A program made the position numbers and the translations under genes. Positions 21,501-59,888 of a DNA stretch of 64,000 nt are shown here, piece by piece; within the stretch, counting starts at the first letter, position 1; each line of letters begins with the position of its first letter. The stretch is from Deltaproteobacteria bacterium. GTDB taxonomy: Bacteria; Myxococcota_A; UBA9042; PHBI01; JACKFB01. Below the pieces are notes generated by a model that made no database searches, was not told the DNA's origin, and worked only from the letters and a program-made list of their open reading frames with translations. Location: NCBI GenBank assembly GCA_020632695.1, contig JACKFB010000013.1, positions 119 through 64,118 of the forward strand, written 5' to 3'.

Positions 21501-23047
21501 GATGGTGCCGCCGCTGATGGCCGCCAGCGCCTTGGAGCCCTTGCGGCCGCTGAGCGTGTCGGTGTCGCGGTCCCAGACGATGCGCGGGCGCAGGTCGGCG
21601 AAGTCGGTGGACGGGTAGCGGCCGGCCAGCATGTCCAGGACGCCGGCGAGCAGCTCGTGGGTCAGGTCGCGGAAGCTGGCGGCCCGGTGCACCATCGCCT
21701 CGAGGTCGGCGACCGGCAGCGGCTCGAGCGCGGCCATCGCGACCACGTGCTGCGAGAGCACGTCCAGCGGGTTGCGCGGCAGCCGCAGCGCCTCGATGGC
21801 GCCCTCGACCATGCGCCCGGCGACGACGGTGGCCTCCAGCAGATCGCCGCGGTGCTTCGGAAAGACGCGCCCCTTGGAGACCTGCCCCACCCCGTGGCCG
21901 GCGCGCCCGATGCGCTGCAGCCCGGAGGCCACCGAGCCGGGCGACTCCACCAGCAGGACGAGATCGACGGCGCCCATGTCGATGCCCAGCTCCAGCGAGC
22001 TGGTGGCGACGATGGCGCGGATGGTCCCGGCCTTGAGCGCCTCCTCGACGTTCTTGCGCTGGGAGTGGGAGATGCTGCCGTGGTGGGCGCCGACCAGGTC
22101 CTCGCCGGCCAGCTCGTTGAGGCGCTGGGCCAGGCGTTCGCAGAGGCCGCGGCTGTTCACGAAGACGATGGTCGTGCGGTGGGCGGAGATCAGCTCGAGC
22201 AGGCGGGGCTGGATCGCCGGCCACACGCTGGTGCGGCGCTCGGCCTCGGTGATGGGGCCGCCGCGCTCGGCGCCGAGCTCCTCGGGCAGCTCGACGCCAT
22301 CGGAGGGGCGCGTCATGTCGGGGACGGGCACCTCGATGCGCAGGTCCAGGGCGGGGCGGGCGCTGGCGTCGACGACGGCGACGGGGCGGTCGCCGCCGAG
22401 AAAGCGCGCGACCAGCTCCGGCGGGCGCACGGTGGCGGAGAGCCCGATGCGCTGGGGCTCGCGCTCGGTGAGGCGCGACAGGCGCTCGAGGGAGAGCGCC
22501 AGGTGGGCGCCGCGCTTGGTGGGCGCCAGGGCGTGGATCTCGTCGACGATGACGGTCTCGACGGTGCGCAGGGTCTCGCGCGCGGCCGAGCCCAGCAGCA
22601 GGTAGAGGGACTCGGGGGTGGTGACCAGGATCTCGGCCGGGTGGCGGACCAGGTCGCGGCGCTCCTTGGTGGTGGTGTCGCCGGTGCGGACGCCGACGCG
22701 GGGCAGGCGCAGCTCGGCGTGGCCCTGGCGGGCGGCCCGCTCGATGCCGGCCAGCGGTGCGCGCAGGTTGCGCTCGATGTCGTAGACCAGGGCCTTGAGC
22801 GGCGAGACGTAGAGCACGCGGACGCCGGGCGGGGCGTCCGGGGGCAGGCGGCTCAGCGCGTCGATGGACCACAGGAAGGCGGCCAGGGTCTTGCCGCTGC
22901 CGGTGGGCGCGATGAGCAGCACGTGCTCGCCGGCGGCGATGCGCTGCCAACCCTGGGTCTGGACCGGCGTGGGAGCGACGAAGGTGGCGTCGAACCAGGC
23001 ACGGGTGGCGGGGCCGAAGGCGTCCATGGGCGCGATGGTGGGCTGGC
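18597..23047 (-). CDS. lhr: ATP-dependent helicase Lhr (large helicase-related protein)
   Basis: ATG at 23047 (MDAFGPATRAWFDATFVAPTPVQTQGWQRIAAGEHVLLIAPTGSGKTLAAF...). Walker A, DEIH, helicase C and the long Lhr C-terminal domain are present (~1480 aa). The 345 upstream codons of the track ORF (Gly/Arg/Leu low complexity) are rejected. Confidence 0.9.
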
Positions 23048-23085
23048 GGCGTCGCGGCCGCAAGGCCCACGCGGGGAGCGCCGCG

Positions 23086-23391
23086 TCAGGGGCGGCCGGG
23101 ACCGTCGCGCGGGTCGACCGGCTGCGGATCGTGGGCGGGATCGCTGTCGAGGCGCGAGGGGGAGCCTCGCTCGGCGCAGGTGCAGACGCGGCAGCCGCGC
23201 TTGTCGATGTCGCAGACCGGGGTGCCCCAGATGCAGACGGGCGTGTACTCGACGCACTCGCCGGCGCCGTAGTCCCTGGTCTGCCGGGTGTGGCAGCCGA
23301 GCGCGCCCAGGGCCAGCAGCGCGAGGGCCGCCAGGGCGAAGAGCGCCGAGCGGGCCAGGCGGGGGCGGCGGGCGAGGGCGGGCTCCGACAT
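23086..23391 (-). CDS. Small Cys-rich secreted lipoprotein (8 Cys)
   Basis: ATG 23391 (MSEPALARRPRLARSALFALAALALLALGALGCHTRQ...CVEYTPVCIWGTPVCDIDKRGCRVCTC...). High third-codon G/C. Confidence 0.5.
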   Translation of the reverse strand: MSEPALARRPRLARSALFALAALALLALGALGCHTRQTRDYGAGECVEYTPVCIWGTPVCDIDKRGCRVCTCAERGSPSRLDSDPAHDPQPVDPRDGPGRP

Positions 23392-23543
23392 GGGGCGACG
23401 ATAGCATGGCGCCGCCGCTTGGCGCAGCATCCGTGTCGCCTGGATGCTCGGGGGCCAGCGACTTGCGCGGGCGGGCGCTCTGTCGCATCGTCTGCCGCCG
23501 AGGCTCCCCTGTGCGAGCCCACCGAACCCGACTGGAGGACCGA

Positions 23544-24425
23544 ATGAACCGTTTGGCGATGCCTGCTCTGTTGACCCTGGGCCTGATGACGGGCGGGCTG
23601 GCGCTCGGCTGCGACAAGAAGGGGGAGGGCGAGGCTGCGGCCGAAGCCACCGCCGAGAAGGTGGCCCCGGCCGAGGCGGGCGAGAAGAAGGCCGAGGAGG
23701 CCAAGCCGGCCGAGGCGACCAAGGCGGCCGAGGAGCCCGCCGCGGCGAAGGCCGACGAACCCGCCGAGGCCGCGCCCGCCAAGGCCGCCGAGGCGCCCGC
23801 CGAGGCCAGGCCCGAGGGCACGCCCGTGCCGCCCGGCTCGACCCACCCCGACCTGATGGATCCGACCAAGGCCACCGCCAAGGCGCCCGACACCTACAAG
23901 GTGAAGTTCGAGACCACCAAGGGCGACTTCACCATCGACGTCGACCGGAGCTGGTCGCCGCTCGGGGCCGACCGCTTCTACAACCTGGTCAAGGTGGGCT
24001 TCTTCGACGGCACGGCCTTCTTCCGCGTCATCAAGGGCTTCATGGCCCAGATCGGCATCCACGGCGACCCGCGGGTCGCCGCGGTGTGGAAGGACGCGCG
24101 CATCCAGGACGATCCGGGCGGCAAGCAGTCCAACGCCCGCGGCTACGTCAGCTTCGCGACCGCCGGCCCCAACACGCGGACCACGCAGTTCTTCATCAAC
24201 TTCGCCGACAACGGGCGCCTGGACCAGATGGGCTTCACCCCCTTCGGCAAGATCGACGCCGAGGGGATGCAGGTGGTCGACGCGCTCTACGCGGGCTACG
24301 GCGAGGGCGCCCCGCGCGGCCGCGGCCCCGACCAGGGCCGCATGCAGAGCCAGGGCAACGAGTACCTGGCCAAGGACTTCCCGATGCTCGACTACGTGAA
24401 GACCGCGAAGGTCGTCGGCGAGTAG
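23544..24425 (+). CDS. Peptidyl-prolyl cis-trans isomerase, cyclophilin type, lipoprotein
   Basis: ATG 23544. MNRLAMPALLTLGLMTGGLALGCDKK lipobox, then an acidic Ala/Glu/Lys linker. Cyclophilin core follows (FFRVIKGFMAQ...GYVSFA...TQFFIN). Confidence 0.85.
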   Translation: MNRLAMPALLTLGLMTGGLALGCDKKGEGEAAAEATAEKVAPAEAGEKKAEEAKPAEATKAAEEPAAAKADEPAEAAPAKAAEAPAEARPEGTPVPPGSTHPDLMDPTKATAKAPDTYKVKFETTKGDFTIDVDRSWSPLGADRFYNLVKVGFFDGTAFFRVIKGFMAQIGIHGDPRVAAVWKDARIQDDPGGKQSNARGYVSFATAGPNTRTTQFFINFADNGRLDQMGFTPFGKIDAEGMQVVDALYAGYGEGAPRGRGPDQGRMQSQGNEYLAKDFPMLDYVKTAKVVGE

Positions 24426-24486
24426 GGCGCTGGACGCGCTCTCCGGGGACGCCTCGCCCGAGGCGCGCGCGCAGCACTACGAGCAG

Positions 24487-40360: not shown

Positions 40361-42346
40361 TCAGTCGAAGCCCAGCGCCACGGCCTCGTAGGCCCGGATC
40401 TGGTCGCGCAGCTCGGCGGCGCGCTCGTACTCGAGGGCCTTGGCCGCGGCGACCATCTCCTTCTTCAGGGCGTCGATGCGCTTCTGCGCCTGGGCCGGCG
40501 TCAGGCGCTTGTCGGGCTTGCCCCCCGCCTCGCCGCCCTCGGCGGCCGGGACCTCCAGCGGCCTCAGGGTCCGGATCGTCGACTCGGGGACGATGCCGTG
40601 CGCCTCGTTGTGGGCGATCTGCCGCGCGCGCCGCCGCTCGGTCTCCTCGATGGCGCGCTTCATCGAGTCGGTCATCCGGTCAGCGTACAGGATCACGCCA
40701 CCCTCGACGTTGCGCGCGGCGCGCCCGATGGTCTGGATGAGGCTGCGCGCGCTGCGCAAGAAGCCTTCCTTGTCGGCGTCGAGGATGGCCACCAGCCCCA
40801 CCTCGGGAAGGTCCAGCCCCTCGCGTAGCAGGTTGATCCCCACCAGCACGTCGAAGGTCCCGCGCCGCAGCTCGTCGAGCAGCTCGACCCGCTCGAGGGT
40901 GTCGATGTCCGAGTGCAGGTAACGCACCTTCACCCCGAGCTCGCGGTAGTACTCCGTCAGATCCTCGGCCATGCGCTTGGTCAGCGTCGTGATCAGCACC
41001 CGCTGCCCGCGCCCCACCCGCGCCCGGATCTCGCCCAGGAGGTCGTCCACCTGATGGGTGACCGGCCGGATGTCCACCTGCGGGTCCACCAGCCCGGTCG
41101 GGCGGATGATCTGCTCCACCACGACGCCGCCCGCGCGGTCCAGCTCGTACTCGCCCGGCGTGGCGCTCATGTAGATGACCTTGCGGGCGCGGGCGTCGAA
41201 CTCCTCGAACTTCAGCGGCCGGTTGTCCAGCGCGCTCGGCAGCCTGAAGCCGAAGTCGACCAGCGTCTGCTTGCGCGCCTGGTCCCCCCGGAACATCCCG
41301 CCGATCTGCGGGATGGCCACGTGGGACTCGTCGATGACCATCAGGAAGTCCGACGGGAAGTAGTCGATGAGCACCGGCGGCGGGTCGCCGGGGCGGGCGC
41401 CGGTCAGGTGGCGCGAGTAGTTCTCGATGCCGTAGCAGAAGCCCACCTGCGACAGCATCTCCAGGTCGTAGCTCGTCCGCTGGCCCAGGCGCTGCGCCTC
41501 CAGCTCCTTGCCCTCGGCCCGCAGCTCCTCGAGGCGCTGCTCCAGCTCCTCCCGGATCCCGCGCGTCGCCCGCTCGAGCTGGTCCGCCGGGGTCACATAG
41601 TGGCTGCCGGGGAAGATCTCGACGAAATCGAGCTGCTCCAGCACGGTCCCCCGCAGCGGGTCCACCAGCGCGATGGACTCGACCTCGTCGCCCCAGAGCT
41701 CCAGCCGGATGGCCCGCTCCTCCTCGTAGGCCGGGAACACCTCGATGACGTCGCCGCGCACCCGGAAGGTGCCGCGGTGGAAGTCGTAGTCGTTGCGCTG
41801 GTACTGGATGTCGACGAGCTGCCGCAGCAGCCGGTCGCGCCGCACCGTCGCGCCGGCGTCCACCCGCACCAGCATGTCGCGGTAGGTCTCCTTGTCGCCG
41901 ATGCCGTAGATGCAGGACACGCTGGCCACGATGATGACGTCGCGGCGCTCGATGACCGCCCGCGTGGCCGCGTGGCGCATCCGGTCGATGGCCTCGTTGA
42001 TGAGGGCGTCCTTCTCGATGAAGGTGTCCGTCGACGGGACGTAGGCCTCGGGCTGGTAATAGTCGTAATAGCTGACGAAATACTCCACCGCGTTGTGCGG
42101 GAAGAACTGCTTCAGCTCGGTGTAGAGCTGCGCCGCCAGCGTCTTGTTGGGCGCCAGCACCAGGGTCGGCACGCCGGCCTGGGTGATGACGTTGGCGACG
42201 GTGAAGGTCTTGCCGGTGCCGGTCGCGCCCAGCAGCACCTGGTGGGCGACGCCCGCGCGCAGGCCCGAGACCAGCTCCTCGATGGCCTGGGGCTGGTCGC
42301 CCATGGGTTCGTAGGACGCGACGAGCTGGAAGGGGCGATCGGACAT
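40361..42346 (-). CDS. uvrB: Excinuclease ABC subunit B
   Basis: ATG 42346 ([29 protein letters not shown]...[10 protein letters not shown]...). The C-terminal UvrB/UvrC interaction helix is present. The track ORF 40361..43411 has a long spurious N-terminal extension. Confidence 0.95.
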
Positions 42347-42436
42347 GGGCGCTCCGCGGGCAGGGCTTCGGATCGATAGGCCGACCGGCGCCGCGACACA
42401 AGCCCATGGTCGCGACGGTGCGAGCCGCCCCGCGGC

Positions 42437-43198
42437 TTGCGCGTGGAGGAGCCGCTGAGTAGAACCTGCGGCGGAATCGTCCTGGAGGCTCTCTTGGCTG
42501 ACTTTCCGCTGGTCCACGTCACCCCGGCCGGCGAGCGCACGCTGCTGGACTACTGGGGACGACTCGACGGAGAGCTCTCGGAGCCGGCGCGCCACCTGCT
42601 CAACGTCCTCGCCCGTTCGCTGGCCGAGCGCGGCTGGCTGGCCGCCCCGCAGAAGGTGCTGGGCCAGCTCGTCGAGGGCGGCGAGGACCTGCAGACCCTC
42701 GCGCGGGCGATGGCCGACCTGCTCCGCTACCGGCTGGTCGAGCTCAGCCCGGACCGCAAGGCGTTCAGGGGTTTCCTGGGTGCCATCTCCATCGCCACCA
42801 CGCCGCACCGCGCCCACCTGGCCAACGGCGTCGACATCTTCTGCTGGGGCGGGCTGGATCTTCTGGGCATGAACGCGGCCCTGGCGCGCCCGGTCGACGC
42901 GTTCTCCCGCTGCGGCCACTGCGACAGCGCCATCACGTTCCGCATGGAGGACGAGGCCATCGTCGACCTCTCGCCGACCGGCCTCGCCGGCTTCCAGGCC
43001 GAGTGGGACGGGACCGAGCCGCTGCCCGCCGTCAGCGCTCGCTCGCCGCTCTTCTGCGGCGACGCCTGCCTCAACGCCTGGATGGACGCTCACGACGAGC
43101 CGCCGGGCATGCCCATCTCCGGCGATCTGCTGCTGCTCATCGGCACCGGCCTGGCCAACGCGCTGGGCGAGGCCCGCTTCGCCCTCATCCGCGGCTGA
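42437..43198 (+). CDS. Alkylmercury (organomercurial) lyase MerB-like protein, orphan
   Basis: [38 protein letters not shown] resembles the MerB core (C-x2-D-x-L ... C). No merR, merA or merT in the window. Confidence 0.55.
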
Positions 43199-43403
43199 GC
43201 CCCCGACCGCGGAAGCCCGCGCTGGCGTTGTTCTTGCTGGCGCGGCGACCCGCCTTTTTTGACGCTCGCCGGGCCGCACCCGAGACTCGCCCCCGTCGCG
43301 ACCCAACCACCGCGGCCCGGGCGGCTGACCGGGCTGCCAGAGACCACGCACCGCGTCGGGCCATCGGTCCGGCGACGGGCACGCGTGCGCCCCGAGGCAG
43401 TCC

Positions 43404-44285
43404 ATGTCCATCGTCTCGATGGCGTCCCGGCGTCCTGACGCCGCCGCCCCCGCTCTCAGCCGCCGCGACGCCTGCGTCGAGCCCCCTCAGCCCATCCTGA
43501 AGTGGGCCGGGGGCAAGCGCAGCCTGTTGCCCGACCTCTGCGCGCGGCTGCCGGCGCGCTTCGAGCGCTACTACGAGCCATTCTTCGGCGGGGGCGCGCT
43601 CTTCTTCCACCTGCTGCCCGACGTGGCCCGCCTCAGCGACGTCAACTCCGAGCTCATCGACCTGTACCGCGTGACCCGCGACTCGGTGGAGGAGCTCATC
43701 GAGGACCTGCGCACCCACCGCTACGAGCGCGGCTACTACTACGCGATGCGGGCCACGGATCCGCGCACCCTGGGCCCGGTCCAGCGCGCCTCCCGCACCA
43801 TCTACCTGAACCGCACCTGCTTCAACGGCCTGTACCGCGTCAACCGGCGCGGCCAGTTCAATGTGCCCATGGGGCGCTACCAGGACCCGGTCATCTGCCA
43901 GGCCGACCGCCTCCGCGCGGCCTCCCAGGCGCTGGCGGGCGTCGACCTCCGCGACGCCGACTTCACCTGGGTGCTCGACGAGGCTCGCGCCGGGGACTTC
44001 GTCTACTTCGACCCGCCCTACCAGCCGGTCTCGCGCACCGCCAACTTCACCAGCTACGCCCGCGGCGACTTCGGCGAGAAGGACCAGGCCCATCTGGCCG
44101 AGGTCTTCTCCGCGCTGGCCTCCCGCGGCGTCCACTGCATGCTCTCCAACAGCGACACCCCGCTGGTGCGCGACCTGTACGGCGAGTTCCGCTGCGAGCG
44201 CGTGTTCGCGCCGCGGGCCATCTCCCGCCGGGGAGACGGCCGGCAGTCGGTGGCAGAGGTCATCGTCCTGAGCTACGATCCGTGA
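43404..44285 (+). CDS. Dam-family (D12 class) N6-adenine DNA methyltransferase, orphan
   Basis: [16 protein letters not shown] (motif X/I, SAM binding) and [10 protein letters not shown] (motif IV DPPY). No adjacent restriction endonuclease. Confidence 0.85.
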
Positions 44286-44370: not shown

Positions 44371-46227
44371 ATGGTGGATCGCATCACTGAGGGTGTGCGG
44401 GTGTGCGTGCGCTGCGGACGCGAAGGCGGACTGCGCGACGTACGTTGTGCCGAATGTGGCTTCGACCTGACGTCGGACCTGCAGCGGGATTACGACCGCT
44501 ACCGCAGCAGCACGTCCGGGCGGGGAGGGGGACCGGCGACCGCCGCGTTGGACGCCGCCCAGCCGCGCAGGAAGACCGCGCCCAATCTCCAAGGCGCCAT
44601 CGGGAAGACGACCCCCGCCCCGGGAGCGGCCGTGCTGGACGCCGCCCTCGACGACGCGCGCCGCACCCGCGCCGGGCGCTCGGCGCCCGCGGCGCAAGGT
44701 CAGGCGGGGCGGACCCGAGGCGGCGGCCAGCGGGTGCCGAGCCCAACCTCCCTCCGGCCGCCGGCCCCGCCGCGTCCGGCGTCGCGACCCAGCAGCATCC
44801 ACGCGCCGGTGGCGCCGCGTCCGGAGCCCGACGAGGGAGACGAGCCGGAGTCGGTCGCCAACCTGCTCTCGGACCGCGCGCCGGATGACGACGCGGCCTT
44901 CGGGGCGGAGGCCGGGCCGCGCACGTCTGCCTGGCATCCCGGCGCCGCCACCGAAGAGGCCGGCGCGGAGACCGAGGCCTCCGATGCGGACGACGCGGCG
45001 TCGCTGGACGCTCCAGTCACCCGCGCCTGGGGCGACCTGGACCTGCCCGCCGGCGCGCGGAGCGGCGAGGCGATCGACGGAGGCCCGACGGCGGCCGCCG
45101 AGAGCGCGGCGTCGGAGCCAGACGAGTCGGAGCCAGGCGACACGGAGCCGGACGAGGAGGAGCCGGACGAGGCGGACACGGCCGAGGTGCTGGCCCAGGC
45201 GGCGGCCGAGGCGGTCACGGCGGCCGCGGCGGCGAGCGAGTGGGCCGCGGAGACGGTGGCCCATCCCGAGGACGAGGGCACGGCCGGCCCTCACGCGGAG
45301 GCCCCGGCGGGCATCGATGGGGGCGCCACGGCGGATCCCGAAGTGGACGACGCGCCCACCGAGGAGACCGTCGCCCAGCCCGACGAGGCGACGGTGATGA
45401 TCGCCGCCGCGGACGTCGAAGCGGCGCTGGGCGCGGCTCCCGAGCCGGACCCGATCGAGCAGGCCGCGGCTCCCGAGCCGGCCGGGACGCCGGCGGTCGA
45501 GGCCCTGGATCCGCGCATCGAGGCGGCGGAGTCCGACGCGACCGTGATGCTCGACGCGGTGACTGCGGCGGCCGCCGCCGTCGAGGCGGAGCAGCCACCT
45601 GCCGAGGAGCGCACGGTGGCGATGGCCTATCCCGTCGACGAGGACGACGCCGAGGCGCCCCCCGACGACGAGGCGCGCACGGTGGTCGCGCCGTCGCCCT
45701 TCCACGCGCGGGCCGCCGCTGCGGAGCCCGTCGAGGACGAGCCCGACGACGCCCGCACCGTGGTCGACGCGCGCGTCCAGGCGCCGCCCGCGGCCGCCGC
45801 GCCGGACACCGGCCGCAAGCCCGGCTCGCGCCGCAAGTCGCGCCGCCGCACCTCGGGCAGTGAGCGCGTCGCCGCCGCCCCCGCGGAGCCCACCGTCAGC
45901 GTGCCCGTGCATGAGCCCGCCCCGGCCCAGCGCGCGTCGCCGCCCACCGGCGGAGGCGCCGCCGCGTCCAGCACGCGCGCAGCCAACGACGCGGCCATGG
46001 TCGCGGCAGCGCTGGCCCCGTCCCACGCCTTCGCCGCCGGCGGCACCCCGCGCTCGGGCCCGATCTCCCAGAACCTCCGGCCGGGGACCACCACCTACGT
46101 CGACGCCACGCGCCGCGGCTTCCGGCGCCCAGGCACCCAGGAGCGCGACCTCTCCGGCGCCTACATCGCGGCTGGCGTGGTCCTGGGCCTCGCCGTGCTG
46201 GCGGCGCTGCTCTACTTCGTGCGTTGA
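44371..46227 (+). CDS. Zinc-ribbon N-terminus, long acidic Ala/Glu/Asp/Pro-rich disordered region, C-terminal TM anchor protein
   Basis: VCVRCGREGG...RCAECGF (two CxxC). About 500 aa of low complexity. C-terminal LSGAYIAAGVVLGLAVLAALLYFVR. High third-codon G/C supports coding. Confidence 0.55.
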   Translation: MVDRITEGVRVCVRCGREGGLRDVRCAECGFDLTSDLQRDYDRYRSSTSGRGGGPATAALDAAQPRRKTAPNLQGAIGKTTPAPGAAVLDAALDDARRTRAGRSAPAAQGQAGRTRGGGQRVPSPTSLRPPAPPRPASRPSSIHAPVAPRPEPDEGDEPESVANLLSDRAPDDDAAFGAEAGPRTSAWHPGAATEEAGAETEASDADDAASLDAPVTRAWGDLDLPAGARSGEAIDGGPTAAAESAASEPDESEPGDTEPDEEEPDEADTAEVLAQAAAEAVTAAAAASEWAAETVAHPEDEGTAGPHAEAPAGIDGGATADPEVDDAPTEETVAQPDEATVMIAAADVEAALGAAPEPDPIEQAAAPEPAGTPAVEALDPRIEAAESDATVMLDAVTAAAAAVEAEQPPAEERTVAMAYPVDEDDAEAPPDDEARTVVAPSPFHARAAAAEPVEDEPDDARTVVDARVQAPPAAAAPDTGRKPGSRRKSRRRTSGSERVAAAPAEPTVSVPVHEPAPAQRASPPTGGGAAASSTRAANDAAMVAAALAPSHAFAAGGTPRSGPISQNLRPGTTTYVDATRRGFRRPGTQERDLSGAYIAAGVVLGLAVLAALLYFVR

Positions 46228-46390
46228 CGCCGGCGCCCCCGCCGACACCGCGCCGCGACGCTCGCGGCACGGGTCCGCGGGCCCAGGCTCCACCCCACTC
46301 CGCGTGGCGCCCGCCGCCGGGCCCCGCGGCTTGCGCCGGCGAGGCGCCCGCGCTATCAGCCGCGCCTCCCCGCACCGCCAGAGCCCGCGC

Positions 46391-49120
46391 ATGAACTGTC
46401 CATCGTGCAGCCACCGGAACCTGTCCGACTTCCCGTTCTGCGAGCAGTGCCTGGCGCTGCTCCCGGTGCGCCCGGGGTCGGTCGCGCGCGGCGCCTTCGC
46501 GCTCGACGACGAGGGGCCGGGACCGGACGGGCCCGGTGGCCCCCGCTGGCCTCCCTTCCCGTGGAACCCGCCCGACCTGGAGGACCCCCTCATCGGCCGC
46601 GACCGCGCCGTGCGCGACCTGATGGAGGGCTTCGAGGAGGTCATCAGCACCTGGAAGGCGCGCATCCACCTGCTGGTGTCCGAGTCCGGCATGGGCAAGT
46701 CACGGGTCGCGACCACCTTCGTCGAGCGCGCCCGCGAGCGTGAACCGGACGTGCGCGTCATCCGCGCCCGCTGCCCCGCCCACGGCGGCCCCTTCCGGAT
46801 GTGGGACGCCGTGCTCCGGGCTGCCTTCGAGGTGCCCCACGACGCCGACGGCATCGTGGCGGGGGCCCGCCTGGCCCAGGCGGTGCGAGAGGCCCTCCCG
46901 GAGGATGCGGCCGAGGTGACCGGCCCCATCGCGTGGCTGCTGGACTGGGAGGTCGAGGGCAGGCCCGATCCCGGCCCCGGCACCGACCAGGAGGCGCTCA
47001 TCGGCCGGGGCACGGCGGCGCTGGCCCGGTTGCTGGCCACCATCTCCGTCGAGCGCCCGATCCTCATCATCATCGACCACGCGAACACGGCCAGCGCTCG
47101 CAGCCTGGCGCTGGCCGGCGCCGTCGAGACCACCGTCAAGGGGCGCCCGCTGATGCTGGTGCTCACCGGGTCCCCGGAGCTCGCGGCCATCCTGCCGGGC
47201 TGGGACCACTTCCCCTCCACGCGCCTGGAGGCCCTGGGCGCCGCCGACGCCGAGCGGATGCTGGCCTGCTACCTGGCCGGGCTCGGCCCTGTCCCCCGCG
47301 AGCTGACCCGCCGCATCCTCGACCGGGCCTCGGGCAACCCCTTCGCCCTCAAGTCCATCGTGCGCTACCTCCGCGAGTCCGGCGCCATCGTCGCCGCCGA
47401 GGGGCGCTTCGTCCTGGACGAGGAGGTCGCGTGGGACCTGGACATCCCCGACAACCTCGAGGGCGTGGTGCTGGCGCAGATCGGCCGGATGCCGGCGGCG
47501 GTGCGTCAGACCCTGGCCCGGGCGGCGGTGGTCGGCGCCGAGTTCTGGGTGGGGGCGCTGGTCTCGCTGGAGCGCCTGGAGTCCGACGGCGAGACCGAGC
47601 CGGGCGCCATCAGCAGCGACCGGGTCCCTGCCGGCATCCGCGAGAGCCTGGAGGCCCTGGCGCAGCTCCGCTTCGTCGAGCGCCGGACCAGCCGCCTCCC
47701 CGGTGAGGAGGCCTGGGGCTTCCGTTCGCCCGTCCACTGGTCGACGGCCTCGGGGATCCTCCCCGCCACCACCCAGGAGCGCTACCACCGCGTGCTGTGG
47801 CAGTGGCTGCTGGTCCACGCCGGCCCGCGCGTCGACGAGCACCTGGTGGACCTCGCCCGCCACGCCGAGGCGTCGGGCGCCGCCGGTGACGCCGCACGCT
47901 TCTTGTGGCGCGCCGCCAGCCGCGCCGCCAGCGAGCACCACCACTCCGAGGCCCGCCGCCTGCTCGAGGAGGCCCAGACGCTGGTCGATCCCGACGACCT
48001 GGAGACCCGCCTCCGCCTGGATCTCGACCTGGGCGATGCCCTGGCGTTGGCCGGCGATCTCGAGGGCGCCGGGCAGCGCTACCACAACCTGCTGACCTCG
48101 GCCTGGCGCCTGCGCCACCGGGGCCACGGCGCCACCGCCCTGGCGCGCCTCGGCAGGGTGGAGACGCACCGCGGCGAGCTGGACCGCGCCTATGCCCATC
48201 TGCTGCAGGCGCTGCGGCTCTTCCAGGCCGTCGAGGACCGCGCCGGAATCGCGACGGTCTCCCTCGACATGGGCCGGCTCTTCTGGCTGCGGGGGGCCTT
48301 CGACCAGGCGCTGCGCTGCTACCGGAAGAGCGAGGACGTCTACCGCGCGCTGCGGGATCGCCGCGGCCTCGCCGACAGCCTCCACCCCATCGGCGCGCTC
48401 CACTACGATCGAGGCAACCTGGCGCTGGCCGACGAGTACCTCGGCGACGCCCTGGACCTGCGCCGCCGGCTCGACGACCGCGCCGGCGTGGCCCAGACCC
48501 TGACCACCCTCGGCGTGGTGCACCTGGCGCGCGGTGAGGCCGAGTCGGCCGTCGCGGCCTGGCGCGAGGCCCTGGCGCTGGCCGAGGAGCGCGTCGATCT
48601 GCCCACCCAGGCCACCCTCGCCGACAACCTGGGCGAGGCGCTGGCAGGCCTCGGGCGCCTGGACGAGGCGCGCGAGCACCTCGAGCGGGCGGTGTCCCTG
48701 GCACGGGACGCCGAGCAGCCGCGCATCCTCGTCGACGCGCTGAGGAACCTCGCCCACCTGGCCGCGCTCGCCGGCGCGCCCGACGCCGCCGAGGCGCGGC
48801 TGGCCGAGGCGCGGCGCGAGGCCGCCAGGCTCGGCATCCCGCGGCTCGAGGCGTTGATCGACCGCACCGAGGGCGACGTGGCCCTGGCGCGGGTGAGCGC
48901 CGACGCGCAGGCGGATCTCGGCCCCGGCGAGCGAGCGTACCGGCGGGCCATCGCGGCCTTCGAGCAGTCGGGCTACGCCCTGGAGGCCGCCGTCGCCTAC
49001 GAGGGGCTCGCCGCCCTGCTGGGCCGCGACGCCGAGCGCGAGACCGACGCCGCGGCGATGCGTGAGGCCGCCCAGCAGCTCCGCGCCCGCCTGCCGACCC
49101 ACGCCGTGAACGCGGGGTGA
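46391..49120 (+). CDS. Zinc-ribbon – STAND/AAA_16-type NTPase – TPR repeat protein
   Basis: ATG 46391 (MNCPSCSHRNLSDFPFCEQCLALL, two CxxC). Walker A is LVSESGMGKSRVA. Walker B is PILIIIDHAN. C-terminal tandem TPRs (…ALRLFQAVEDRAGIATVSLDMGRLFWLRGAFDQALRCYRKS…). No DNA-binding or kinase domain seen. The track ORF 45860.. has a 5' extension. Confidence 0.8.
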   Translation: MNCPSCSHRNLSDFPFCEQCLALLPVRPGSVARGAFALDDEGPGPDGPGGPRWPPFPWNPPDLEDPLIGRDRAVRDLMEGFEEVISTWKARIHLLVSESGMGKSRVATTFVERAREREPDVRVIRARCPAHGGPFRMWDAVLRAAFEVPHDADGIVAGARLAQAVREALPEDAAEVTGPIAWLLDWEVEGRPDPGPGTDQEALIGRGTAALARLLATISVERPILIIIDHANTASARSLALAGAVETTVKGRPLMLVLTGSPELAAILPGWDHFPSTRLEALGAADAERMLACYLAGLGPVPRELTRRILDRASGNPFALKSIVRYLRESGAIVAAEGRFVLDEEVAWDLDIPDNLEGVVLAQIGRMPAAVRQTLARAAVVGAEFWVGALVSLERLESDGETEPGAISSDRVPAGIRESLEALAQLRFVERRTSRLPGEEAWGFRSPVHWSTASGILPATTQERYHRVLWQWLLVHAGPRVDEHLVDLARHAEASGAAGDAARFLWRAASRAASEHHHSEARRLLEEAQTLVDPDDLETRLRLDLDLGDALALAGDLEGAGQRYHNLLTSAWRLRHRGHGATALARLGRVETHRGELDRAYAHLLQALRLFQAVEDRAGIATVSLDMGRLFWLRGAFDQALRCYRKSEDVYRALRDRRGLADSLHPIGALHYDRGNLALADEYLGDALDLRRRLDDRAGVAQTLTTLGVVHLARGEAESAVAAWREALALAEERVDLPTQATLADNLGEALAGLGRLDEAREHLERAVSLARDAEQPRILVDALRNLAHLAALAGAPDAAEARLAEARREAARLGIPRLEALIDRTEGDVALARVSADAQADLGPGERAYRRAIAAFEQSGYALEAAVAYEGLAALLGRDAERETDAAAMREAAQQLRARLPTHAVNAG

Positions 49121-51209: not shown

Positions 51210-52079
51210 TCACGGGCGCGCCCCGGCGACCCGCGCAGGCCCCCGGACGCTGTACTCGCCAGGATCGGCCCGCTCCTTCGCGCGACCCAGGTGGAACACC
51301 AGCTCCACCGTGGGCGCGAAGATCACCGTCCGTGGCGTCTTCTCGGTGAGCGAGCGGATCCCCTCGCCCCGGTCGACGATCCAGCTCAGGTACTGCGGGA
51401 AGATGAAGCGCAGATCCATGCCGACGGCCACGTGCGGCGAGAGCTGATAGAGCATCCCGACGCCCGCCGCCTGGTGGAGCCCCTCGAAGGCCTTGCGGGC
51501 GTCGGGGGTGTCCGGCTGCACCTCCTGCTGCAGGCGCGCCGAGGGGTGGTACGCGCCCACCGAATAGCCGGTGCCGTAGAAGAGGTTGAAGTCCCAGGCG
51601 CGCTCGTCGTGGTCGATGCTCAGCTCGGCCGGGTGCCAGCGGATCTGGACGCTCAGGTGCGCCGCACCCTCCGAGGCACGCGCCTTGCCGTGGCCCATGG
51701 CGACCAGCTCCAGCGAGACGTGGCCGCGGATGTTCCAGCCCAGGCGCACCTGGGCCGCCGCCCCCGAACCGAAGCGCGTACGCGACATCTCCCGGAAGAT
51801 GTCCTCGGCCGCGACCGGCTCGCCGACCGTCGGATCGTCGCGCGCGTAGACGCAGCGGAGCGCGCCGTCGGCATCGGCCTCCGCCCAGAGGTAGGGGCCG
51901 CCGTCGTCGCTCGCGCAGGCTCCGCGCGTGTCGAAGCGCACGCCGCGGGTGCCGGAGGCGGAGGCGGCGCCCACCCCCAGCGCCACGTAGAAGCCGTCCT
52001 CGATGGCCCGCGCGCCACCCCCCGATCCCACGATCAGCCCGGCCGCGACTAGCGAAACGACGGTACGCACGGATCTCAA
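51210..52079 (-). CDS. Putative outer-membrane beta-barrel protein
   Basis: Signal peptide (M/L)RSVRTVVSLVAAGLIVGSGGGARA after TTG 52079 or GTG 52070. Alternating amphipathic strands. C-terminal …VELVFHLG. Confidence 0.5.
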   Translation of the reverse strand: MRSVRTVVSLVAAGLIVGSGGGARAIEDGFYVALGVGAASASGTRGVRFDTRGACASDDGGPYLWAEADADGALRCVYARDDPTVGEPVAAEDIFREMSRTRFGSGAAAQVRLGWNIRGHVSLELVAMGHGKARASEGAAHLSVQIRWHPAELSIDHDERAWDFNLFYGTGYSVGAYHPSARLQQEVQPDTPDARKAFEGLHQAAGVGMLYQLSPHVAVGMDLRFIFPQYLSWIVDRGEGIRSLTEKTPRTVIFAPTVELVFHLGRAKERADPGEYSVRGPARVAGARP

Positions 52080-52351
52080 TGCGCCTCCTGCCGGCCCCCG
52101 CCGAGCGCACGCTCGGAGACCATCATACACTCCGACCCGCCTGGAATGGAGACCGGCGCCTCCTCCGGATACCGAGCGGGGGTCATTGGCGGTTGCGGAC
52201 GCCATCCCGCATCGCTACCCTCTCGTGCATTCGAGCCGGTCGCCGTTGTCCCGGCCGCCCCAGGGGAGGGCGCGCGCGCGGCCCCCGCTCCCACCGCCCC
52301 ACCCGCCTCGGCGACGAAGGGCAGGGCCGTTCCACGTCTGCGCGAGTCCAG

Positions 52352-53317: not shown

Positions 53318-53402
53318 CCCCTCGGGCGAGAGCTTGCGGGCTCGGTGGAGCTCGGGGCGCGGCGCGATGGTCGGTTTCGTCCAGGCGCCTGTTTCGCGCA
53401 TC

Positions 53403-56400
53403 ATGGCGCCCATGCCCGCCTTCGACAGCGCCGCCCGTTCGGCCCGCTCGGCGACCGCCCGCTCGCGCCGCGCGATGGCGCTGCTCTGCGCCGTCGCGCT
53501 CTGGAGCGCCTGCGACGTCGGCACCCTGGACGGCGGCGGCGGCTGCGTGCGCATCCACCAGGGCGACTACGAGCTCCCGAGCCAGGCCATCGTGACCCGC
53601 GGGTTGTCGGCGCGCGTGACCCAGGCCGGCACCGACCTGCTCACCGCGCGCGTCCGCGAGCTGGTGCTCACCTTCTTCGACGCCGACGAGGAGGGCCGCG
53701 CCATCGTCCCGCTCAGCGACTTCGGGGTCGGCACCCTCGGCCTCTCCCTGGGCCCGCTGAGCGCCGAGCTGCGCGACCTCGTCATCGCGCTCGACCTCGA
53801 CGGTCTCGACGTGAGCTTCGTCGCCGGCTCCAGCCCCGCCCGCCTGCGCATCCACCTCGACGCCGCCGACGTGAGCCTGGTCTCCGGCACCCTGGCCGGC
53901 GCCCTCGACGTGCTCTTCATCAAGCCCGACCTCGCTTGCGGGCTGGGCGACGGTCCCTCGGGGCGCATCGCCCGCCTGGGCTTCGACGTCGACCTGGTCC
54001 TGGCCACCGACGCCTCCGGCGCGCTCAGCGTCCACACCGAGGCGCTCACGGTGCGCGTCGAGGAGGTCGGGCTGACCGTCATCACCGACTGCCAGCTCGC
54101 CGAATGCCAGGACGGCTGCGGTGAGTGTCAGCTCGCCTGCGGCGCCGGCGATCTCGCCGCCAAGCTGGCCCCGGCCATCCAGAGCCTCTTCGCCGACCTC
54201 ATCGACACCCTGGTGAGCTGGGTCGCCGACACCCTGGCCCCGATCCTCATCGACGCCTTCCTCAACGGCAAGCCCCTGGCCGTGGAGGGCACCCTCGACG
54301 TCGCCAGCCTGGGCGCCGCGCTGCTGCCCTGGCTCTCCGGCGCCTCGCCCATCGGCGTCCTCGGCCAGCCCGCTGGCGACGCGTTCGCCGTGACGGGCAG
54401 CGGCGCCGACACCGGCCTCAGCGTCGCCCTGGATGCCGGCGTCGACGCCCTCTCCGTCGCCGCGTGCATCGCCGAGCCCTCGCCCCTGCCGCTCTTCGTC
54501 GCGCAGCCGCCGCCGCCCTGGCCTGACCGCGCCACGGGCCCCGACGGCAGCCAGGTCCCGTACCACATGGGCCTCGCCATCAGCGCCGCCGTGGTCGCCG
54601 AGGCCGTACACGCGAGCTGGCGCGCCGGCGTGCTCTGCATCGACCTCCAGAGCGCCGACCTCGCCGCGCTCACCGGCGGGGCCGTCGTCCTGACGGCCGA
54701 CGCGCTCGGCGTGCTGCTGCCCGGCATCACGAGCATCGTCGAACCCGACGCCCCCGTCCGCGTCCGCCTCCGCCCCCGCCTCGGCGACGCCTCTCCCGTC
54801 CGCTTCGCTGCCCTGCCCGGCGAGCCGGACCTCACCGTCACCCTCGACGACGCCGAGATCGCCGTGGAGGCCCAGGTGGGCGACCACTTCCTCCGCCTGG
54901 TGAGCTTCTCCGCCGACCTGGCCCTCCGCCTCGGCCTCGACGCCCTCGCCGGCGCCCAGCTCTCCGTCCGCGTCGACGGTATCGACGTGTCGGACCTGCG
55001 CGTGCCCCAGAGCGAGATCTTCGCCAGCGCGCGCCTGGATCTCGTCGCCCCCTTCGTCGTCGATCTGGTGCTGGGGGTGCTCGCCGAGCGCGCGCTGCGC
55101 TTCGACCTGGACCTGGGCTCCCTGGTGAGCTCGCTCGTCGATCTCCCGCTGGTGCCGGTCATCGAGGAGATCACCGGCACCGGCGACTGGCTGCGCGTCC
55201 TCATCGGCCTGCGCAGCGCCTCCCCGCCGATGACGGCGCTGCTGGCGTCGCGGGTGCACCTCATCGAAGCCCGCCCCGGCGGCGCGCGCCTGTGGGTGGA
55301 GGCCCCCGCCGGCGCCCAGGTCCAGCTCCGCGCGGCCGGCGGCGCGTGGGGCGCCTGGCACGCGGCCGACCACCCCTTCGACGCGAGCCTCGCCGGGCTG
55401 TGGCGCCGAGGGCCCACCTTCATCGAGGCCCGCCTGCGCCCCGCCGGAGGCCGCCCCGGCCCCGCCGCCCGGGTCCCCGTGACCCTCGCCGCTCCGGAGC
55501 CCGCCGCGGTGCCCTCGACGGCCACCGTCCCGCTCGCGCCGCGCTCCGCCGAAACCGCCCCGCTCGCGCCGCGCTCCGCCGAATCCGCGCCGCTCACCGG
55601 CTGCCGAGGCGGCCCCGCCGGCGCGCCGCCCCTGTCCCCCCTCGTCGCCCTGGCCCTGCTGCTGCTGGCCGCGCGCCGCCAACGGCGCGTTCCCACCGGC
55701 CGACGCGCTGCCGCCGCCCTCGGCCTGACGCTGCTGCTGGCTCCGCTGCCCGCCTGCGGGTCTGGCGAGGCGCCGCCGCTCTCATGCACCGCGGACTCCC
55801 AGTGCCCCGCGCGCTCGGTGTGCGGCCCCGAAGGCACCTGCGTCGTCGCCACCGCCTGCGCCTCCGACGACGCCTGCTGCCCGGGCTCCCTCTGCTTCAA
55901 CGGCTACTGCCGACCCACGCCCCGGTGCTCGGAGCAGAGCCCCTGCCTCGCCCCCGGCACGGCCTGCGAGGACGCCCGCTGCGTCGCGGCCCCGTGCGAC
56001 AGCGACGCCGCCTGCCCCGACTCCGCCCGCTGCACCGGCGGCCGCTGCGTCGCCGGGCTGCCTTGCGGTGGCTGCCCCGCCGGCGCCGCGTGCGACCTGC
56101 CCAGCGGTCGCTGCGTCGCAGCCCCGCTCTGCGACGGCGCCTGCGACCCGGGCGACGTGCTGACCCTCGACCCCGCCTCCCCGGTGACCCCGCTCTCCTG
56201 CGGCGGCCTGAGCGCGCGCTGCCGGTGCACGCCCCTGCCGGAGCTGCCGCCGCCGCTCCCCGGCATCGAAGGCCAGTTCCTGGCCACGCCGGGAGGCCCG
56301 ACCCTGGTCAGCCACGACCCGGTCTACGGCGATCTGGTGGTCTCGCGCTTCTCGGAGGACCTGGACAGCCGAAGCGACCTGGCGGTGGACGGCGTGCCCG

Positions 56401-57623
56401 ACCTCGCCGCCACCGCCGCGTCCGTCGGCTACCGCGGCGGCATCGCCGAGGCGGGCCCGCGCCGGGGGCTGCACCCGGCGGCCATCTGGCGCACCGAGTC
56501 GGGGCACGCCATCGCCGACCTCATCCACCAGGACGGCGACCTGGCGCGGGCGCGCTACGCCCGGGTCGACCTGAACGCGGGCCAGCTCCTGCAGTCGCAC
56601 GAGCTGCCCGTCGAGGGGAAGGCCGGCCGCTACGCCTGCCTCGCGCGGCACCCCGCCACCGGACGTCTGGTGGGCTGGGTCTACGTGGCGCGCGACGCCT
56701 CGGGCACCGTGTCCCGGCTCGTCCGCGTCGAGGCGCGCACCGACACGCCCGCCGGCCCCGAGGACTGGTCGGTCGCCCTGGTCCGGGAGAGCCCGCTGCC
56801 CGTGACCTCGCCCGAGCCGTGCGCGGCCGCCTGTGCCTTGACCGAGCTCTGCGTGCGCTTCGGCCCCGGAGACGACCGCTGCGTCGGCGCGCTCGAGCGC
56901 CCGAGCTGCGCCGCTCCCTGCGCGGCTCGCGAGCTCTGCGTGGACGCGCCCACGCCCGTCTGCCGGCCGCGCGTCCAACCCGAAGGCGCCCCCGGCGCGC
57001 TCCCCACCGGCGAGGGCCTCTTCGTGACCTGTGCGGCCGTGCCCGACGGTCTGGTGGTGGCCTGGTACGACGCAGACGCCGGCGCCCTCCGCGCCTTGCG
57101 AGGGCTCGGGGCCGGGGCGGTCGCGGTGCGCGTCGACGGGACCGACGATCCCCACGACGCCAGCGACGTCGGCGCCCACGCCCGGCTCGCCGTCGCGCCC
57201 GACGGGACCGTGCGCATCGCATACCAGGACGCGCGCGCGGGCTCGCTGTGGCTCGCCACCCAGGCGACCCCCGAGGCGCCGTGGGAGACCGAGCGGGTCC
57301 ACGCGGCGGGGGCGGGCGGCGCCGGCCGCGATCTGGGCGCCTGGCCGGCGCTGGTGCACGACGCGGCGGGCGAGCCCGTCGTCGCCTACGCCGACACCGA
57401 GCGCGGCGACATCTGGGTGGCTCGCCGCGGCCCGGACGGCTGCTGGCGACGCACGCGCCCCCTCGCGGACGGCGCCTTCGCGTGGCCGGCGCTGGCGCTG
57501 GCGCCCGACGGCTCGCTGCAGCTCAGCGCCCTGCTGCTGGCCTTCGACGAGGCCGGGCGTCCTCTGCATCGCCTGCTCACGAGCAGCCTCCCCATCCCCG
57601 CGGGGCCATGCGCCGCGCCCTGA
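53403..57623 (+). CDS. Large secreted Cys-repeat protein; single open frame that appears to contain two fused products (an internal MYXO-CTERM-like sorting signal followed by a new lipoprotein signal)
   Basis: N-terminal signal …RRAMALLCAVALWSAC. At 55600..55690 the frame reads TGCRGGPAGAPPLSPLVALALLLLAARRQRR, a MYXO-CTERM-like tail. This is immediately followed in frame by VPTGRRAAAALGLTLLLAPLPACGSG, a lipobox signal. No stop or canonical start separates them. The downstream half carries Myxococcus-type Cys-rich repeats (C..S.C..G..C…). Confidence 0.6.
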   Translation: MAPMPAFDSAARSARSATARSRRAMALLCAVALWSACDVGTLDGGGGCVRIHQGDYELPSQAIVTRGLSARVTQAGTDLLTARVRELVLTFFDADEEGRAIVPLSDFGVGTLGLSLGPLSAELRDLVIALDLDGLDVSFVAGSSPARLRIHLDAADVSLVSGTLAGALDVLFIKPDLACGLGDGPSGRIARLGFDVDLVLATDASGALSVHTEALTVRVEEVGLTVITDCQLAECQDGCGECQLACGAGDLAAKLAPAIQSLFADLIDTLVSWVADTLAPILIDAFLNGKPLAVEGTLDVASLGAALLPWLSGASPIGVLGQPAGDAFAVTGSGADTGLSVALDAGVDALSVAACIAEPSPLPLFVAQPPPPWPDRATGPDGSQVPYHMGLAISAAVVAEAVHASWRAGVLCIDLQSADLAALTGGAVVLTADALGVLLPGITSIVEPDAPVRVRLRPRLGDASPVRFAALPGEPDLTVTLDDAEIAVEAQVGDHFLRLVSFSADLALRLGLDALAGAQLSVRVDGIDVSDLRVPQSEIFASARLDLVAPFVVDLVLGVLAERALRFDLDLGSLVSSLVDLPLVPVIEEITGTGDWLRVLIGLRSASPPMTALLASRVHLIEARPGGARLWVEAPAGAQVQLRAAGGAWGAWHAADHPFDASLAGLWRRGPTFIEARLRPAGGRPGPAARVPVTLAAPEPAAVPSTATVPLAPRSAETAPLAPRSAESAPLTGCRGGPAGAPPLSPLVALALLLLAARRQRRVPTGRRAAAALGLTLLLAPLPACGSGEAPPLSCTADSQCPARSVCGPEGTCVVATACASDDACCPGSLCFNGYCRPTPRCSEQSPCLAPGTACEDARCVAAPCDSDAACPDSARCTGGRCVAGLPCGGCPAGAACDLPSGRCVAAPLCDGACDPGDVLTLDPASPVTPLSCGGLSARCRCTPLPELPPPLPGIEGQFLATPGGPTLVSHDPVYGDLVVSRFSEDLDSRSDLAVDGVPDLAATAASVGYRGGIAEAGPRRGLHPAAIWRTESGHAIADLIHQDGDLARARYARVDLNAGQLLQSHELPVEGKAGRYACLARHPATGRLVGWVYVARDASGTVSRLVRVEARTDTPAGPEDWSVALVRESPLPVTSPEPCAAACALTELCVRFGPGDDRCVGALERPSCAAPCAARELCVDAPTPVCRPRVQPEGAPGALPTGEGLFVTCAAVPDGLVVAWYDADAGALRALRGLGAGAVAVRVDGTDDPHDASDVGAHARLAVAPDGTVRIAYQDARAGSLWLATQATPEAPWETERVHAAGAGGAGRDLGAWPALVHDAAGEPVVAYADTERGDIWVARRGPDGCWRRTRPLADGAFAWPALALAPDGSLQLSALLLAFDEAGRPLHRLLTSSLPIPAGPCAAP

Positions 57624-57752
57624 GGCCGACGGGGGGCAGGACCCGGACGCGGCGCTCCGGCGTGGTCGCCCACGGTCGATTCCGGCGTGTCTCTATGGAC
57701 ATGGAGCGCCCGAGCACGGACTATTGAACGCGGCTGTAGTAACGGGGTTCCG

Positions 57753-59485: not shown

Positions 59486-59546
59486 CGGCGGCCTCGTCCG
59501 CCACGCTCCCAACCTCCGATTAAGGCATCACTAAAGGAGATACGCC

Positions 59547-59888
59547 GTGCATCATCCCAAGTCCCCCAAGCAGCTCGTCGCCGACTCGTTCGGCTCCCGC
59601 GCAGCCCTCGTCGACGCCATCATCGGCGTGCTCGGTGACGAGGAGGGCCTCCGCTCGCGCCTGATGGGCACGACCAACAAGAAGCTCCTGCGCATCCACG
59701 AGGTCGCCCAGACCGTGCAGAAGCGCTTCGGCGGAAAGTCGGGCCTGCTCGACGCGGCCGCGAAGCTCCAGTTCCCGAAGGGTGGCCCCAACCCGGGCTG
59801 GCGCGAGAAGATGGAGGGCTACACCGTCAAGCGCCTCCTCGATCACCATGACGCCCTGGCGCGCCGCGCCAGCAAGGCGCGGGACTGA
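59547..59888 (+). CDS. Small hypothetical protein (113 aa)
   Basis: GTG 59547 with AAAGGAG 7 nt upstream. Basic, helical. Coding-like codon bias. Confidence 0.55.
   Translation: MHHPKSPKQLVADSFGSRAALVDAIIGVLGDEEGLRSRLMGTTNKKLLRIHEVAQTVQKRFGGKSGLLDAAAKLQFPKGGPNPGWREKMEGYTVKRLLDHHDALARRASKARD

Follow-up and report, generated by a model that had tools for sequence, protein, structure and literature searches.

Two predicted envelope proteins joined mid-frame by a conserved pair of sorting signals in Myxococcota

How can a sorting tail of the kind that ends proteins and a lipoprotein signal of the kind that begins them stand back to back in the middle of one gene? This question is raised by a gene on the forward strand of contig JACKFB010000013.1, from a metagenome-assembled genome (MAG) of a 'Deltaproteobacteria bacterium', of which a stretch of 64 kb was analyzed (hereafter, the window). 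The gene (53403..57623, +) comprises 1406 codons from its ATG plus a stop codon and, as an original prediction made from the letters alone had claimed, its single open frame holds a MYXO-CTERM-type tail followed by a lipobox signal, with no stop or start between them. On balance, we favor the reading that the product of this gene is a polyprotein, in which two envelope proteins are linked through a transient membrane hairpin composed of two sorting signals, and that the sorting enzymes of the cell itself probably excise this hairpin. That the hairpin would be excised is suggested by relatives, which hold both proteins as separate neighboring genes.

As for the reading frame, a single open reading frame (ORF; 53334..57623, +) of 1429 codons, counted from a TTG, contains candidate ATG codons at 53367, 53403, 53412, and 53475. 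An identical sequence, P0001 (NCBI, locus tag H6744_15290, MAG 'Deltaproteobacteria bacterium'), has 1418 residues, which implies a start at ATG 53367; residues are numbered here over the 1406 codons from ATG 53403. Since the G+C content of the window is about 75%, long open frames by themselves are weak evidence, and it is codon bias together with homologs that identifies a real gene. The G+C content of third codon positions (GC3) is 0.95 over the open frame and, in the frame of the gene, remains at 0.88-1.00 throughout the junction between the two signals. Because GC3 stays high in one frame, no frameshift is concealed there. Accordingly, a frameshift or hidden stop was ruled out by three-frame translation and frame-specific GC3. 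Read-through or recoding was ruled out as well, the junction being devoid of any stop codon to read through, which also disposes of the programmed read-through that had been entertained in the original prediction. Similarly, an internal start for the C-terminal half was rejected. The nearest in-frame ATG, GTG, or TTG 5' of the lipobox Cys is a GTG at 55509, which sits 82 codons before that Cys and upstream of the MYXO tail. The C-terminal half is thus not translatable alone, because no in-frame start lies within 82 codons upstream of Cys785.

The junction consists of two signals that share a basic loop. The first is an internal MYXO-CTERM-type tripartite signal (55599..55688, +), lying in the segment TGCRGGPAGAPPLSPLVALALLLLAARRQRR (55596-55688), in which a Gly-Cys motif (55599-55604, with the codon of Cys734 at 55602-55604) is followed by a hydrophobic helix, L744-A757 (55632-55673), and by the Arg cluster RRQRR (55674-55688). 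The next segment, VPTGRRAAAALGLTLLLAPLPACGSG, starts at 55689, directly after this tail, with a Val codon, GTT, which is not a start codon. The basic loop RRQRRVPTGRR (55674..55706, +), predicted from sequence to be cytoplasmic, appears to have a double role, providing the Arg cluster of the MYXO-CTERM tail as well as the n-region for the second signal. The latter is an internal lipoprotein signal (55707..55757, +), in which the h-region AAAALGLTLLLAPLPA leads into the lipobox L-P-A-C (55746-55757), with the codon of Cys785 at 55755-55757. Hence, this second element displays an n-region (RRQRRVPTGRR), an h-region of 13-16 residues (AAAALGLTLLLAP), and a lipobox. The first element likewise displays the helix and Arg cluster of MYXO-CTERM proteins, and the fused protein starts with an N-terminal signal peptide as these do, here of the lipoprotein type. 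It is in their position that both signals are unusual: RRQRR is followed by 644 further residues instead of ending the protein, and the Cys785 signal does not come directly after an initiator Met. An internal transmembrane hairpin, which had been put forward as an alternative to a gene fusion, is an apt description of this segment, in which the predicted topology is that of an Arg-rich loop between two hydrophobic stretches.

The profile of the MYXO-CTERM family gave a mixed answer. When TIGR03901 was run on the excised segment, as the original prediction had proposed, the score exceeded the cut-off (21.7-21.9 bits vs. 20, E ~2e-4), whereas no match was reported in the full-length scan. In the same scan, the true C-terminal tails of split orthologs scored 19-27 bits, a few of them being without a match. 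Since these scores are alike, the internal MYXO signal appears to be as good as the terminal ones by this measure.

We found that the fused gene is neither rare nor recent. A search of 5.8 billion proteins with the full-length query returned P0001 and 15 other homologs at 37-72% identity, nearly all of them 1373-1425 residues long, the exceptions being P0005 (987 residues, a shortened gene call) and P0013 (1217 residues, with an internal deletion). The word-indexed searches were saturated, with 16 matches for the full-length query and 7 for an N-part profile, and split forms were found by an exhaustive profile search of 1.84 billion representative proteins, which yielded 370 proteins at E ≤ 1e-30. 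Using purpose-built hidden Markov models (HMMs) of the N half and C half, we classified 160 proteins, i.e., the 16 from the homolog search plus the best listed representatives. Both halves are present in 71 of them, the C half only in 59, and the N half only in 30. Wherever a source record names an organism, it is a Myxococcota or 'Deltaproteobacteria' MAG, and a scan of GTDB species representatives identified 11 loci, 9 of which are titled Myxococcota, Myxococcales, or 'Deltaproteobacteria' MAGs. The clusters to which the homologs belong are all named 'hypothetical protein', except for one named 'TIGR03382 family', and no cultured host came to light. Independent assemblies of sister lineages (P0002-P0005, L003, L004, and L006) are fused, with junction sequences that differ from one another.

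Conservation within the hairpin is confined to very few positions. In the alignment of 16 homologs, mean column identity is 29% and the sole invariant columns are G733, C734, and C785, while an Arg between the two Cys is nearly invariant. A pattern made of a Cys, a spacer, a helix, a basic loop, a second helix, and [AGS]Cys was detected in 67 of 70 fused representatives, and in 69 of 70 once P0003 and P0021 were added by eye. The single fused representative without the first Cys, P0098, has kept the lipobox. Among the 67 pattern-matching sequences, a Gly precedes the first Cys in 61, and the lipobox -1 position is G, A, or S in all. This is more than chance would leave, and it supports the notion that selection acts on the processing residues and not on the hairpin sequence. 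The net charge of the loop in fused representatives ranges from +2 to +9 (median +4), which is expected to place it in the cytoplasm and to orient the second helix N-in, C-out like a signal peptide. Furthermore, internal and terminal signals are alike in geometry. Ahead of the lipobox Cys, the median length of the uncharged run is 13 residues in fused and 13.5 in split proteins (Mann-Whitney p = 0.86), and the distance from the first Cys to the first basic residue has a median of 22 in fused and 21 in split proteins (Mann-Whitney p = 0.15). By its length, a run of 13 residues is predicted to be a signal-peptide h-region, too short for a stable transmembrane helix.

Together, these findings lead us to set aside two of the explanations that had been offered for the locus. 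A recent fusion or pseudogenization is contradicted by the fused form in 15 homologs at 37-72% identity, by its presence in 71 of the 160 classified proteins, and by the conservation of both sorting Cys. A sequencing error is at odds with an intact frame and codon bias, and with the fused form in independent assemblies. The architecture is of the fusion type as supposed, old, conserved, and probably functional.

The two units are known elsewhere as adjacent genes, as the original prediction had supposed. In four split loci (L010, L013, L014, and L020), a stop codon comes directly after the Arg cluster of the upstream gene A (GC-helix-RRRR-stop), and the downstream gene B has its own ATG and lipoprotein signal in a different reading frame. 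The stop of gene A and the ATG of gene B are at 8211 and 8199 in L010, 8247 and 8253 in L013, and 8298 and 8259 in L014. The most informative locus is L020, in which the N part is 75% identical to that of the window and the upstream synteny is the same. There, gene A (6001-8211) ends in ...GGCRSGAPAAPTLALISALALALATRRRRTP-stop, while gene B starts 16 nt further, at 8228 in the +1 frame, and begins with MHAHPPPHPPRRRAHLLAAAALLALGAAC. The search for a stop codon at the junction in orthologs therefore had two outcomes: the stop is present in L020, L010, L013, and L014, but there is none in the fused homologs. In the profile search, ~19 complete N-only proteins terminate in GC-helix-RRRR, and 26 full-length C-only proteins open with a Met plus a lipobox signal.

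Fused and split states have apparently interchanged many times. In a neighbor-joining tree of the C half of 68 representatives, they are interspersed, with at least 13 state changes. A focused tree, (window, (L020, (P0005, (P0003, (P0004, P0002))))), nests the split L020 among fused genes, and the six-member clade of the window, L020, and P0002-P0005 was recovered in 50 of 50 bootstraps. Judging from these arrangements, the state would change on short timescales via small indels, even within the clade of the window. Two further loci were excluded from the evidence as probable indel-affected junctions. L012 (~8200-8330) reads ...LALALVGCSRAAAAARVRW..., while the near-identical N-only protein P0028 reads ...LALALVGWLARRRRRA-stop, which looks like either a frame-shifted Arg cluster that fused the genes very recently or an indel in the assembly. 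To read across the hairpin of L011 (~8150-8380), the frame apparently has to shift twice, the second shift compensating for the first.

How might such a protein mature? In the polyprotein reading that we favor, the N-terminal lipoprotein signal would send the N half, predicted to be BPI/TULIP-like (see below), over the inner membrane via Sec. The MYXO-CTERM helix L744-A757 would then stop transfer, with RRQRRVPTGRR remaining in the cytoplasm, and the second short hydrophobic stretch, N-in/C-out like a signal peptide, would re-start export, this time of the C half. Lgt and LspA would lipidate and cut at Cys785, freeing a Cys-rich β-propeller lipoprotein, while the MYXO-CTERM pathway (lipidation of Cys734, then a cut by the myxosortase MrtX) would free the N half. 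A hairpin peptide of ~50 residues (735-784) would remain and be discarded. The final products would be those of two separate adjacent genes in relatives. Since both arrangements would yield the same mature products, rapid change between fused and split states would be expected, which could explain how easily they flip through small indels. What the analysis shows are the anatomy of the sequence, its conservation, the existence and nesting of split orthologs, and the folds as modeled, whereas we infer the topology, the two cleavages, the two lipidations, and the final location.

Several points weigh against this reading. Both cleavages and the lipidation are deduced indirectly and, to our knowledge, neither the action of Lgt and LspA on a signal that is not N-terminal nor that of MrtX on a tail preceding a second helix has been demonstrated. 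Our literature search found no paper describing an internal lipobox. The Pro at -2 of the lipobox L-P-A-C is atypical. TIGR03901 passes its cut-off marginally and on the excised segment only, going unreported in the scan of the full 1406-residue protein, and it matches 10 of the 16 homolog hairpins at E ≤ 1, the other 6 missing that threshold. Another oddity, so far without explanation, is that the N half would have a lipid-attachment Cys at each terminus. P0001, the sole 100% match, probably derives from the very assembly that contains the window, so the fused state in this genome rests on one assembly. The number of state changes depends on a distance-based neighbor-joining tree, and indel errors may lie behind some of the states, fused or split, that were called in MAGs, as in L011 and L012. 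No myxosortase was found in the 64-kb window (no CPBP-family gene among the window ORFs scanned), a point of little weight. There are no other MYXO-CTERM proteins in the window either, which at 64 kb only also carries little weight.

The alternative that survives best is a polyprotein that is processed by half, with only one signal in use, e.g., LspA cutting at Cys785 while the N half keeps its helix anchor, or the reverse. We regard this as unlikely, although it has attractive aspects. LspA and Lgt occur universally, and a second helix that is oriented like a signal peptide suits both ideally. The action of MrtX has been demonstrated only on tails at a true C terminus (PMC11980579). The fused representative P0098, with a lipobox and without the first Cys, is in keeping with such a scheme. 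What speaks for the use of both signals is that Gly-Cys is conserved to the same degree as the lipobox Cys, in all 16 close homologs and in 69 of the 70 distant representatives, and that the MYXO tail would again be near a free C terminus after the LspA cut. Moreover, central tripartite signals are cleaved in HVO_0405 (PMC7157517).

Permanent anchoring by two helices, whereby the hairpin stays uncut in a single 146-kDa inner-membrane chain with both large domains periplasmic, is to our mind distinctly improbable. An out-in-out topology in which the cytoplasmic loop is rich in Arg is compatible with any helical hairpin, so the topology predicted here suits this explanation too, as do the marginal MYXO-CTERM score and the indirect case for cleavage. 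Such an anchor would need no Gly-Cys or [AGS]-Cys, yet these are the sole invariant hairpin positions, retained in 69 of 70 distant fused representatives. Besides, its second helix would have to be a hydrophobic run with a median of 13 residues, i.e., of signal-peptide length and not to be told apart from the signals at the N terminus of split orthologs, and the repeated interchange of fused and split forms, also in the clade of the window, is hard to square with two different final locations.

An artifact or decay, in which two genes of this MAG would have been joined by an indel in the assembly or by a recent mutation that inactivated them, is very improbable indeed: even though the sole identical sequence probably comes from the same assembly, a 75%-identical relative (L020) is split, and the MAG junctions of L011 and L012 have likely indel noise, the frame and GC3 run on without a break to either side of the junction, both signals are intact, independent assemblies of sister lineages are fused with different junctions, dozens of distant lineages are fused as well, and both halves are still highly conserved.

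We then return to the polyprotein reading and to the two proteins that it would release. The N-terminal lipoprotein-type signal peptide (53403..53513, +) reads MAPMPAFDSAARSARSATARSRRAMALLCAVALWSA then C, with the codon of Cys37 at 53511-53513 and an Asp at +2. The Cys and Asp that open the mature N part are invariant (homolog alignments A1 and A4), forming a conserved motif, A-C-D. In E. coli, an Asp at +2 of a lipoprotein is an inner-membrane retention signal. Here, the +2 Asp (53514-53516), invariant in the nine-sequence N-part alignment A4, belongs to a domain, the N half, whose C-terminal end carries a surface-sorting tag, and its significance in Myxococcota is uncertain, especially in this combination. 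The N half is predicted to contain two modules, each with a helix and a long twisted β-sheet, of a BPI/LBP/CETP-like (TULIP) fold (53622..55085, +), as indicated by an AlphaFold2 model and Foldseek, followed by a predicted β-sandwich at its end (55149..55481, +), corresponding to strands 547-657 of the N part in the AlphaFold2 secondary structure. The model (m5de026f7514c) has a pLDDT of 61.8 and a pTM of 0.40. In Foldseek searches against PDB, it matches BPI (1ewf) with a probability of 1.0 and an E value of 2.4e-15, bearing in mind that a model of moderate confidence only was used. Other matches are CETP, LBP, botulinum P47/OrfX2, and JHBP/Takeout, with low global TM-scores of 0.25-0.36. Together, these matches suggest a putative tandem TULIP fold for the N half, for which lipid binding may be predicted. 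A Pro/Ala-rich linker (55524..55595, +) lies directly 5' of the sorting Cys and holds a 30-nt tandem repeat (2.4 copies, 92% matches) encoding PLAPRSAE(T/S)A. Homologs do not have the repeat, so it would be a lineage-specific expansion of a disordered linker.

The C half begins with a region of Cys-rich β-hairpin repeats (55758..56234, +), defined by invariant Cys columns and the AlphaFold2 model med35d9f5e10d, with 26 conserved Cys in ~160 residues. Its only matches are weak and below cut-off, to TIGR04201 Myxo_Cys_RPT, DUF7107, and Dickkopf_N. The remainder of the C half is a predicted β-propeller domain (56262..57620, +), with pLDDT values mostly of 80-93. The C-half model was built from a nine-sequence alignment and has a pLDDT of 75.7 and a pTM of 0.67. 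Foldseek searches against PDB relate the propeller to PLL lectins, sialidases, and BT3686-type glycoside hydrolases (E 1e-9 to 1e-7, TM(target) ~0.6). For either half, no family in Pfam/NCBIfam scored above cut-off, and a PDB sequence search yielded nothing meaningful. The original description, a Cys-repeat surface protein plus a Cys-rich lipoprotein, is thus apt for the C half, which is Cys-rich, but not for the MYXO-tailed N half, which is predicted to be BPI/TULIP-like. Any function beyond that of an envelope lipid-binding protein and its propeller lipoprotein partner would be conjecture, and even these roles are suggested by models.

How does this protein compare with known systems? It shares with the MYXO-CTERM/MrtX system (TIGR03901 and TIGR03382, with TraA as the model substrate) a Gly-Cys, a helix, an Arg cluster, an N-terminal signal, and a Myxococcota host. 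Unlike in usual MYXO-CTERM proteins, the signal is at residues 733-762 of 1406, the N-terminal signal is lipoprotein-type, and cleavage by MrtX is presumed. Sorting tags within the products of gene fusions are in themselves an already known kind of feature. MXAN_5598 of Myxococcus xanthus has an internal MYXO-CTERM, is a likely fusion, and its N part has been proposed to be processed (PMC11980579). The same study cites evidence of mid-protein sorting tags working and rates such cases as rare (PMC11980579). However, the domains of MXAN_5598 are an adhesin and an outer-membrane β-barrel/OmpA, in contrast to the BPI-like and Cys-rich propeller parts predicted here, and no lipobox after its tail is mentioned (PMC11980579), whereas in the family of the window protein a hairpin of tail plus lipobox is conserved and there are many fused and split members.

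A second precedent, and the only one of the two for which cleavage in vivo has been demonstrated, is HVO_0405 of Haloferax volcanii, a fusion of two formerly independent genes in which the sorting enzyme, the archaeosortase ArtA, cuts at a central signal (PMC7157517, which cites Abdul Halim et al. 2017). Both this protein and that of the window are two-gene fusions with a sorting tag mid-protein, and in the family of the window protein there are separate-gene orthologs. HVO_0405 differs in being archaeal, in relying on another sorting enzyme family, in being described as strain-specific, and in that no following lipoprotein signal is described there (PMC7157517). Two models of sorting or anchoring signals in unusual positions, NF033207 'midcut-by-XrtH' and NF058595, give weak hairpin matches that are far below cut-offs and indicate no membership. 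For NF058595, the 'lipo-invert putative C-terminal anchoring domain', the sub-threshold matches to homolog hairpins (best E 7.7e-5) span helix 1, loop, and helix 2, and the window hairpin scores 19.5 bits vs. a cut-off of 37. We found no literature on 'lipo-invert'. BPI/LBP/CETP (TULIP) proteins resemble the N half in predicted fold, with no sequence-level match and with lipid binding predicted only.

A more distant parallel is provided by the envelope polyproteins of flaviviruses and alphaviruses, in which hairpins of a stop-transfer and a signal sequence are cut by host signal peptidase. The logic is shared, i.e., one chain in which the second helix of a hairpin is the signal peptide of the next protein. 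These polyproteins differ in being viral/eukaryotic, in being cut by signal peptidase I, and in having no lipid anchoring, which makes this a mechanistic resemblance and not homology. Three features of the window family appear to be new, namely that tail and type II signal peptide are obligatorily paired within a single hairpin, that both Cys are conserved across dozens of deep lineages, and that fusion and fission are repeated. Whether this amounts to a widespread bacterial polyprotein system, in which a ~50-residue hairpin would be excised by myxosortase and Lgt/LspA to give two lipid-anchored partners at 1:1, and in which a self-resolving hairpin would let genes fuse and split freely, is in our opinion an even bet.

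The surroundings of the gene are conserved too. Most homolog loci inspected share the order FHA-GGDEF, fused gene, hrcA in some, grpE, bamD (YfiO), a small ORF, carD, M20 peptidase, and dtd. The neighborhood is different for P0016, the most distant homolog. Judging by gene order, the syntenic homologs are orthologs in a housekeeping region. hrcA is found between the fused gene and grpE in most orthologous loci (L001, L002, L015, L017, L018, and L019), with no grpE called after hrcA in L019. In the window (57623-57687), L003, and L016, the fused gene is followed directly by grpE, without hrcA, so that hrcA was lost or moved in these lineages. In L020, downstream synteny is broken and there is an M48 peptidase on the opposite strand. 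The small ORF of ~112-118 codons directly after bamD (59535-59888, +), which has no Pfam match, is in the same position in 9 of 10 related loci with DNA (missing in L020 and in truncated L016), and would be a conserved partner of the bamD-carD region. Upstream of the fused gene, a 331-residue protein without a Pfam match (51210-52205, -) is a conserved neighbor in several relatives, its counterparts in L002 and L016 giving weak matches to outer-membrane protein β-barrels. Another upstream neighbor conserved in several relatives is a STAND-type AAA_16 plus TPR protein (45563-49120, +).

Elsewhere in the window, a large MmeI-like type IIL restriction-modification enzyme is encoded at 427-4278 (-), with MmeI N-terminal, helicase-spacer, methyltransferase, and TRD domains. 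The open frames of the Lhr helicase (18597-24476, -) and of UvrB (40361-43486, -) extend ~500 and ~390 codons, respectively, before the first recognized domains, which may be real N-terminal extensions or stop-free sequence typical of a genome of 75% G+C.

What does the tandem of signals mean for this family? If both internal signals are used, neither Lgt/LspA nor myxosortase needs a chain-terminal signal, and bacteria could mature chromosomal polyproteins with ordinary sorting enzymes, like viral envelope polyproteins cut by host signal peptidase. With natural pairs of fused and split genes, some of them 75% identical, the rules by which MrtX and LspA recognize their substrates can be tested directly. 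There are implications for annotation as well: signal predictors scan N termini and sorting-tag models expect C termini, with the consequence that such proteins are filed as hypothetical inner-membrane proteins with two transmembrane segments, and their localization is probably mispredicted. Finally, the two halves have persistently remained adjacent or fused, which is evidence of the Rosetta-stone type that they work jointly, one as a predicted BPI/TULIP-like protein and the other as a Cys-rich propeller lipoprotein, in a conserved locus beside grpE and bamD of an uncultured Myxococcota lineage.

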